The notes beneath the pieces are model-generated. The model worked only from the letters and a program-made list of their open reading frames with translations. It was not told where the DNA came from and made no database searches. Made by a program: the position numbers and the translations under genes. A stretch of DNA of 64,000 nucleotides from Escherichia coli (GTDB taxonomy: Bacteria; Pseudomonadota; Gammaproteobacteria; Enterobacterales; Enterobacteriaceae), in assembly GCF_003018235.1 (NCBI RefSeq), contig NZ_CP027437.1; one strand, 5' to 3'. Shown one piece after another: positions 44,665 to 45,218 of the stretch (its first letter is position 1; every line of letters begins with the position of its first letter).

Positions 44665-45029
44665 GCACCATAACTGCTAATCATTCAAACTATTTCACCT
44701 GTGACAGAGTCAATATCGCATTCTGTCACTGTCAGGCTAATACAGAGCTGCAATTCAACTACTGCAATGTCCTCGTAATTAGGTGAATTTACAATATCGT
44801 CCTGTTCGGATGCCGGCTGCATTGCTGAAGATGAGGCATTTATGGTTCGCATATTTTCCCCTCATGCTCGTCAGTCCTGTGCGTAGGAAGAAACAGGACA
44901 CTCACACTAATTTGTGTGGGCATGCTGTGATGTCCTTCTGAATTATTCCTATTCCATTATGTAAAGCGCTGTATCAGATGCTCGTCACGGCTGTCAGGCT
45001 GTCGGGTCCTCCCGGTGGGGGCCCCTGCC

Positions 45030-45100
45030 ACGGGGCGGGAGCGTCGCGGAAAAAGGCTAGTTTTTGAAATTTTATTCGTCATCACCACTACTGTAATTGA
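45030..45100. other. Putative cos site (cosN-cosB region)
   Basis: GC-rich GGGGCGGGAGCGTCGCGG followed by AAAAAGGCTAGTTTTTGAAATTTTATTCGTCATCAC, resembling lambda cosN GGGCGGCGACCT-CGCGG and downstream TGAAAATTTT...TTCGTCAT; ~180 bp upstream of terminase small subunit. Confidence 0.5.
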
Positions 45101-45218
45101 TTGATATTACAGTTGTTTTATTTTTATGGTGTCGATTCTGATTGTTTTTTGTTCATCACTAACACCGTTTGCCTAAAGTTGTTCGCAAGATGCATGTTTA
45201 AAACATTCTGGAGCGGGT

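Follow-up and report, generated by a model that had tools for sequence, protein, structure and literature searches.

A putative lambda-like cos site ahead of the terminase genes of a Qin-like prophage in Escherichia coli

The DNA analysed here (the window, a stretch of 64,000 nucleotides from Escherichia coli contig NZ_CP027437.1) contains a complete-looking prophage that spans from an integrase gene on the minus strand to beyond position 64000. Outside the immunity region, it shows collinearity with a complete Qin-like prophage of E. coli SC487, which carries integrase, excisionase, exonuclease, dicB, antiterminator, lysis, cold-shock moron, head and tail genes, J, lom and a tail fibre gene. 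Its first packaging and head genes code, in this order, for the small and large terminase subunits, a head-tail adaptor and the portal protein, and are preceded by an intergenic region with the features listed in Table 1. The start of the portal gene was taken from the PGAP annotation of a collinear prophage (NZ_LR778149, locus L089, 23625-25133), the longest open reading frame starting at 47952.

Table 1. Coordinates of the features of the terminase region and of the putative cos site; distances in bp are counted from the predicted left end of the packaged DNA.
Feature	Position	Strand	Basis or remarks
Integrase gene	25885-27180	-	One limit of the prophage
cosQ heptamer GGGTCCT, putative packaging-termination subsite	45004..45010	+	7/7 match to lambda, 21 and Gifsy-1
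cosQ-cosN spacer, sequence-variable	45011..45030	+	Mean pi 0.134, both borders invariant in related loci
Predicted cosN, CG+GGGCGGGAGCGT+CG	45031..45046	.	Ends of the cdtI and Tritos records; CG flanks as in lambda (PMC4669245)
GC-rich element GGGGCGGGAGCGTCGCGG	45032-45049		Read from the window sequence
Predicted 12-nt 5' cohesive end GGGCGGGAGCGT	45033..45044	+	8/12 with lambda, 11/12 with Gifsy-1
Conserved block CGCGGAAAAAGGCTAGTTTTT, bp 13-33	45045..45065	+	Identical in cdtI, Tritos and the types of loci L082-L087; divergence right after
TGAAATTTT block, bp 33-41	45065..45073	+	Nick-anchored ungapped alignment; counterpart of lambda TGAAAATTTT, bp 32-41
cosB, presumed small-terminase recognition region	45066..45218	+	Differs between sister phages with the same cosQ and cosN
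TTCGTCAT block	45075-45082		bp 43-50 here, bp 67-74 in lambda
TTCGTCATCACCACTAC, bp 43-59, candidate primary TerS contact	45075..45091	+	Overlaps the position of lambda R3 (bp 50-65)
Hypervariable patch within cosB	45086..45128		43 bp
Imperfect palindrome ACTACTGTAAT-N8-ATTACAGTTGT around the IHF-like core	45087..45116	.	11-nt arms, 91% complementary
IHF-consensus site TAATTGATTGATA (YAANNNNTTGATW; minus strand WATCAANNNNTTR), bp 62-74	45094..45106	-	Exact consensus match
Terminase small subunit (TerS), 164 aa	45219..45713	+	Pfam DUF1441 2.7e-41; PHROG 141 7e-74
Terminase large subunit (TerL), 700 aa, gpA family	45713..47815	+	Pfam GpA_ATPase 1.6e-71, GpA_nuclease 5.2e-86
Head-tail adaptor, gpW-like, 72 aa	47806..48024	+	PHROG 118 1.4e-37
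Portal protein, lambda family	48024..49532	+	Pfam Phage_portal_2 9.2e-82

The small terminase, which in thousands of E. coli genomes carries the RefSeq label 'DUF1441 family protein', matches PF07278 with 141 bits against a cut-off of 35, and its homologues from Salmonella, Providencia and Serratia invariably precede a gpA-type large terminase. It shows no detectable sequence similarity to lambda Nu1 (E = 20) and a weak similarity to the small terminase of Gifsy-1 (25% over 93 amino acids, E = 0.034), located in the N-terminal HTH region. An AF2 model (pLDDT 78) displays an N-terminal strand-helix-helix-wing-helix arrangement; its best Foldseek matches in the PDB were MerR-type wHTH proteins, with non-significant scores (E >= 0.14), and a PDB sequence search with TerS retrieved nothing relevant. 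The large terminase is 25% identical to lambda gpA in BLASTP comparisons (E = 6e-19), and both of its Pfam domains score far above their cut-offs, so that it belongs to the gpA family that Feiss et al. (PMC4669245) use as one criterion for a lambda-like cos.

The intergenic region stands out by its composition, with a GC content of 0.80 over 44990-45049, as compared with 0.27-0.43 across 45050-45229 and 0.38-0.50 upstream, all measured in intervals of 60 nt. A previous reading of the sequence alone (hereafter the sequence-only reading) had described a GC-rich element isolated in AT-rich DNA about 180 bp upstream of the small terminase gene, and the element GGGGCGGGAGCGTCGCGG does lie there: the ATG at 45219 is 170 bp past its end and 187 bp from its start, where the predicted left end is also placed. 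The composite pattern GGGTCCT-N18-26-CGGGGCGG-N6-CG has a single match in both strands of the 64-kb window, and appeared in 0 of 100 dinucleotide-preserving shuffles. The cosN core alone, tolerating one mismatch, is not rare, with 9 matches in the window versus 4.3 expected; we therefore attach significance to the combination of cosQ and cosN and to their context. An isolated GC-rich island in an AT-rich intergenic region, with a short palindrome inside (GGGGCCCC), might conceivably be a terminator, a structured RNA or a repeat element instead of a packaging site. We consider this highly improbable, because we found no terminator-like site at the island and no Rfam match at E <= 1, and because its folding energy equals that of shuffled sequences (z = 0.17), with no stable hairpin; besides, the palindrome is not conserved, relatives carrying GGGGTGGCC in its place, whereas both cosQ and cosN are kept.

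[quoted passage not shown] We compared the window with lambda, phage 21 and Gifsy-1 in ungapped alignments anchored at the nick (ACG/GGGCGG), and the alignments to lambda and 21 bore out the proposal of the sequence-only reading that cosN is lambda-like. The cosQ heptamer is perfectly matched and starts 29 bp before the predicted top-strand nick, 1 bp closer than in lambda (30 bp), and CG dinucleotides flank both predicted nick positions (45031-45046). The predicted cohesive end GGGCGGGAGCGT shares 8/12 positions with that of lambda (GGGCGGCGACCT), being identical at bp 1-6 and matching at bp 10 and 12; the mismatches are confined to bp 7, 8, 9 and 11, which fits the published natural variation of bp 7-12 (PMC4669245). 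It likewise shares 8/12 positions with the cohesive end of phage 21, and 11/12 with that of Gifsy-1 (GGGCGGCAGCGT), with bp 7 as the sole difference. Rotational symmetry of the 16-bp cosN involves 8/16 positions (4/8 pairs, not clearly above chance), versus 10/16 in lambda and Gifsy-1. A full-text literature search with the 12-mer retrieved unrelated eukaryotic papers only. The cosQ heptamer itself had gone unmentioned in the sequence-only reading.

The same core recurs in related loci. With the TerS protein as query, 80 loci were obtained from IMG/VR, 77 of which showed the same cos pattern, and we derived a conservation footprint (pi) from 58 distinct related sequences that could be aligned without gaps. 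Among them, cosQ is invariant (pi = 0), as are bp 1-10 of cosN, while bp 11-12 vary as GT, GG, AG or AT. In the IMG/VR relatives, the conserved module is preceded by five or more mutually unrelated left flanks, all of which meet it directly before GGGTCC, and this marks cosQ as the functional left border.

Two deposited phage genomes end within this core. The record of phage cdtI (AB285204), flagged as circular, starts with GGGCGGGAGCGTCGCGGAAAAAGGCTAGTTTTT and ends in ...GGGTCCTTCCGGTGGGGTGGCCTGCCACG; that of phage Tritos (OV696610), a linear record, starts as cdtI does and ends in ...GGGTCCTCCCGGTGGGGGCCCCTGCCACG, which equals the window up to 45032. Both thus start with GGGCGGGAGCGTCGCGG, which contains the 12-mer, and end in ...GGGTCC...CCTGCCACG (...CCACG). 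Since the two record junctions fall at the same bases, we placed the top-strand nick at 45032/45033 and, with it, the bottom-strand nick at 45044/45045, predictions that we hold with somewhat lower confidence than the identity of the cos site; the overhang of the right end would be the complement, ACGCTCCCGCCC. The proposal that the GC-rich element defines the end of the packaged genome agrees with these records, which start and end exactly at the predicted nick, although their start points may follow the analogy with lambda instead of a mapping of the ends. Tritos, prophage 3 of E. coli LF82, makes virions and plaques, and the paper that reports it does not describe its DNA ends (PMC9928086).

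The site might be a cos whose true cuts are shifted, or whose overhangs are not 12 nt long, since the nicks were placed by alignment and by reference to record ends, and these ends may reflect a lambda convention. The large terminase is also distant from gpA, and in the aligned register the 12-mers of relatives from Serratia and Salmonella lack a CG on their left side. We nevertheless see this as quite unlikely, because the CG flanks, the GGGCGG at bp 1-6 and the distance to cosQ all match lambda, and because two independently deposited records share one junction. Additionally, the assembly of mEp460_4F5 (LR595868) has a break 5 nt before the junction and is missing 3 nt at the predicted right nick or next to it, where it reads GGGCGGGAGCG/CGG; as a weak indication, such a defect might appear in an assembly from virion DNA with physical ends there.

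The identity between the window and cdtI extends from cosQ to bp 33, to the right of cosN; beyond this point the two sequences become unrelated, with 15/65 shared positions over bp 46-110. Their large terminases are 88% identical and their small terminases 42%, with the N-terminal DNA-binding part being the most diverged; two more cosB types, in loci L082-L087, go with TerS variants of 87-90% identity. The sequence-only reading had named two blocks downstream of the GC-rich element as resembling the cos region of lambda, a likeness that proved weaker for cosB than that reading implied. Both are present, and the first of them, TGAAATTTT, stands opposite TGAAAATTTT in the alignment to lambda, in which 19/33 positions are identical over bp 13-45; the record of phage 21 (M81255) annotates the IHF site I2 at bp 30-44, in this same region. 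The resemblance did not hold for the second block, TTCGTCAT, which we rejected as a homologue of the lambda block because it is displaced by 24 bp and absent from the sister cosB types, the likeness being probably coincidental.

In lambda, R3 lies at bp 50-65 and needs a fixed spacing from cosN (PMC9026076). The equivalent stretch in the window is TCACCACTACTGTAAT, and bp 43-55 are near-invariant among the 58 related sequences; by analogy, TTCGTCATCACCACTAC would be a candidate for the primary contact of TerS. Lambda-like complex cosB sites have the order R3-I1-R2-R1, with the TerS sites flanking an IHF site (Feiss et al., PMC4669245). We did not find convincing R3/R2/R1 repeats of this style in the cosB of the window, where a repeat search with 6-nt seeds retrieved weak short families only. 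Direct reading of the sequence shows weak TCATCAC repeats at 45146-45152 and an inverted GGTGTCGAT at 45127-45135; the cosB may be of the complex, lambda-like type or of the simple, N15-like type. The IHF-consensus site is followed by a T-rich tract and is oriented as I1 of lambda and 434 (bp 74-86 in the 434 record), 12 bp closer to cosN. The consensus alone has 5 matches in the window versus 3.3 expected, which is not significant. Its consensus positions are invariant in the related sequences, whereas the variability of the region peaks, with pi of about 0.6, at 45098-45099, which are two of the four N positions of the site; the TTGAT/TTGAA core occupies bp 69-73 in three cosB types and bp 71-75 in cdtI.

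The imperfect palindrome around the IHF-like core has 94% of its cells paired across 45 variants, with weak covariation (15/500 shuffles). When 45 cosB variants were folded jointly with RNAalifold, the resulting structure was weak (-5.9 kcal/mol) and contained no compensatory pairs. Likewise, the covariation found with two explicit models of palindrome and stem was modest and insufficient to claim a conserved hairpin.

A separate observation concerns a hypervariable patch within cosB (45086..45128), which appears among otherwise near-identical prophages with essentially identical TerS. Mean pi in the patch is about 0.11, versus 0.005-0.012 elsewhere in cosB, 0.015 at third codon positions of TerS and 0.029 at those of TerL. 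A 43-nt interval at the patch contains 24 haplotypes, whereas such intervals over 2.15 kb have a median of 3 (95th percentile, 8), and we counted 43 distinct 58-nt cosB variants in 73 loci. The patch holds the two palindrome arms (45087-97 and 45106-16) plus a third, partly complementary segment (45120-33), and alleles of a segment recur as reverse complements in other segments. In covariation tests of two pairings (15/500 and 0/500 shuffles), the second result rests on one A-T to G-C change in six sequences. It is possible, but in our view doubtful, that the patch is a genuine mutational or selective hot spot over the R3-equivalent and the IHF-like site, in a compact cosB where TerS would contact the palindrome arms around the IHF site instead of widely spaced R boxes as in lambda. 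One possible cause would be templated quasi-palindrome or strand-switch mutagenesis among 45084-97, 45106-19 and 45120-33; diversifying selection on the packaging-initiation complex could also explain it. If true, cosB would offer a natural system in which the sequence of a packaging signal changes much more rapidly than the terminase reading it. The patch is the sole part of this locus that might repay further work.

Of 5,426 complete E. coli genomes, 2,783 contain part of the 1-kb stretch surrounding cos. A match to this stretch at 100% occurs in none, the best reaching 99.6%, and the 58-nt cosB haplotype of the window was seen once among the 43 variants. These two facts could indicate that the site is a cos by descent that is no longer functional, either as a relic in a non-packaging prophage or as a cosB variant that is not recognised. 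We regard this as unlikely, because in cosQ, cosN and bp 13-33 there is no difference from the plaque-forming Tritos and because the positions at which the window differs are those that vary freely among many prophages. Moreover, the open reading frames for TerS, TerL, adaptor and portal have their full length, and the collinearity with a complete prophage extends from the integrase to the tail fibre. That the packaging signal is retained, as the sequence-only reading had it, is something that we also infer, from sequence conservation.

Together, the anatomy of the motifs, the agreement with the cos of lambda, 21 and Gifsy-1, the termini of the cdtI and Tritos records, the gene families and the conservation footprint lead us to conclude, with a probability of about 0.88, that the region from 45004 to around 45218 is the cos of a lambdoid, Qin-like E. 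coli prophage that would be packaged by the lambda scheme. The steps of this scheme, in which the exact nicks, the overhang chemistry, the role of IHF, the cosB bases read by TerS and the function of this copy are deduced from sequence, would be as follows. After induction and the formation of concatemers, the small terminase, modelled with an N-terminal winged-helix-like domain, would bind cosB, to the right of the cut site, probably aided by IHF bending the DNA at 45094-45106. This binding would position the gpA-family large terminase on cosN, and this enzyme would nick the top strand at 45032/45033 and the bottom strand at 45044/45045 to generate 12-nt 5' overhangs, with GGGCGGGAGCGT at the left end. 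Packaging would then run rightward, with the terminase genes entering first, and would stop at the next cos, where cosQ (45004-45010) would be needed for the terminal cut. The site would thus fix the coordinate origin of the virion chromosome of this prophage and the direction of packaging, and it supports the view that the prophage can still be packaged; of the two proteins that would read it, the large terminase has only 25% identity to gpA and the small one comes from another sequence family. It is otherwise an ordinary feature, its core being already at the ends of deposited phage genomes, and it leaves the current understanding of cos packaging unchanged.

Among phages, cdtI and Tritos are identical to the window in cosQ, cosN and bp 1-33, and Tritos has in addition the left flank of the window, including the DUF1398 (ybcV-like) and ybcW-like genes; they differ in having another cosB past bp 33 and a small terminase of 179 amino acids, 42% identical to that of the window. 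The opposite occurs with mEp460, phi458 and vB_EcoS-569R4, which have the cosB type and TerS of the window, with 91-97% nucleotide identity over cos and the start of TerS, but other alleles of the hypervariable patch and records that are not cut at cos, and are thus uninformative on the ends. The lambdoid phages mEp213 and LLS are around 84% identical to the window over cosQ-cosN and differ from its 12-mer at bp 7-11; their putative cos, GGGCGGCGCGCT, was inferred by analogy with lambda, and their gpA-type terminase is about as distant from lambda (PMC12315714).

The site resembles that of lambda in its complete cosQ, CG flanks, bp 1-6 of the cohesive end, the T/A-rich block at bp 32-41, the IHF-type site in cosB with the same orientation, the order of the terminase, adaptor and portal genes, and the start of the small terminase gene, at bp 187 here and at bp 191 (Nu1) in lambda. 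[quoted passage not shown] Gifsy-1 shares with the window all but one position of the cohesive end, a cosQ GGGTCCT (at -30) and TGAAAATTTT, but its small terminase is a Nu1 homologue and its cosB is unrelated. Lambda and 21 have cosQ and cosN in common and differ in cosB and in the specificity of TerS (PMC4669245); likewise, the type of the window and that of cdtI and Tritos keep the core and diverge in cosB and in the N-terminus of TerS, which by analogy suggests that they may have separate packaging specificities, although, unlike in that pair, their small terminases belong to the DUF1441 family and not to Nu1.

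Among the compared loci L009-L088, at least five unrelated left-flank sequences are joined to the conserved cos module directly 5' of GGGTCC, and therefore a recombination (mosaic) boundary coincides with cosQ. An 8-bp tandem unit (GGCTGTCA/GGCTGTCG) adjoins cosQ; it occurs in two copies in the window, three in phage Tritos and four in locus L015, and these differing counts thus define a small copy-number-variable repeat.

A hypervariable patch lies within cosB. Across this patch, loci with near-identical small terminases (TerS) carry 43 distinct 58-nt variants (73 loci), and a single 43-nt window in it contains 24 haplotypes, as against a median of three over 2.15 kb. 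The variability is located at the N positions of the IHF-like consensus and in the outer portions of three segments that are partly complementary to one another, with alleles at the variable sites that mirror each other as reverse complements. Elsewhere in the prophage, the immunity region is the sole segment that is not collinear with the Qin-like prophage of E. coli SC487; outside it, both prophages are 98.5-99.4% identical.

Positions 11-12 of the predicted cohesive end, counted from the predicted left end, read GT, GG, AG or AT among related prophages, so mismatched ends would arise from co-resident or recombining phages. Such ends, expected from phages differing at bp 11-12, recall the lambda/N15 case studied by Feiss (PMC4669245). 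The phage assembly mEp460_4F5 (LR595868) is linearised 5 nt ahead of the predicted nick and lacks 3 nt at or beside the predicted bottom-strand nick, where it reads GGGCGGGAGCG-CGG; physical cohesive ends may have given rise to this break and gap as an artefact of assembly.

The gene that follows cosB encodes a 'DUF1441 family protein' according to RefSeq/PGAP in E. coli genomes. The same protein is a terminase small subunit according to PHROG 141 and several phage records, and its DUF1441 naming leaves thousands of genomes with a gap in their annotation.

Coordinates of the features described and of the regions compared
Feature	Sequence	Position	12-mer (aligned register)
8-bp tandem unit	window	44989-45004	
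Left border of cosQ (GGGTCC)	window	45004	
Cohesive-end bp 11-12	window	45043-45044	
Hypervariable patch	window	45086-45128	
TerS (DUF1441)	window	45219-45713	
Large terminase (TerL)	window	45713-47815	
Immunity region	window	30854-32801	
mEp460_4F5 end	L007	1-25	
Salmonella prophage, DUF1441-TerS	L093	1035-1130	GGGATACGGACA
Providencia prophage, DUF1441-TerS	L095	955-1060	AGGCGGCGACCA
Serratia prophage, DUF1441-TerS	L097	1040-1130	GGGGCGGCTACA

In Salmonella, Providencia and Serratia, prophages with a DUF1441 TerS retain the overall arrangement: an element resembling cosQ, a 12-mer rich in G, CGC at bp 13 and a TTTTTG block. The Salmonella prophage also has an IHF-like site. Their 12-mers differ, however, and the changes include the supposedly conserved left half. 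[quoted passage not shown]
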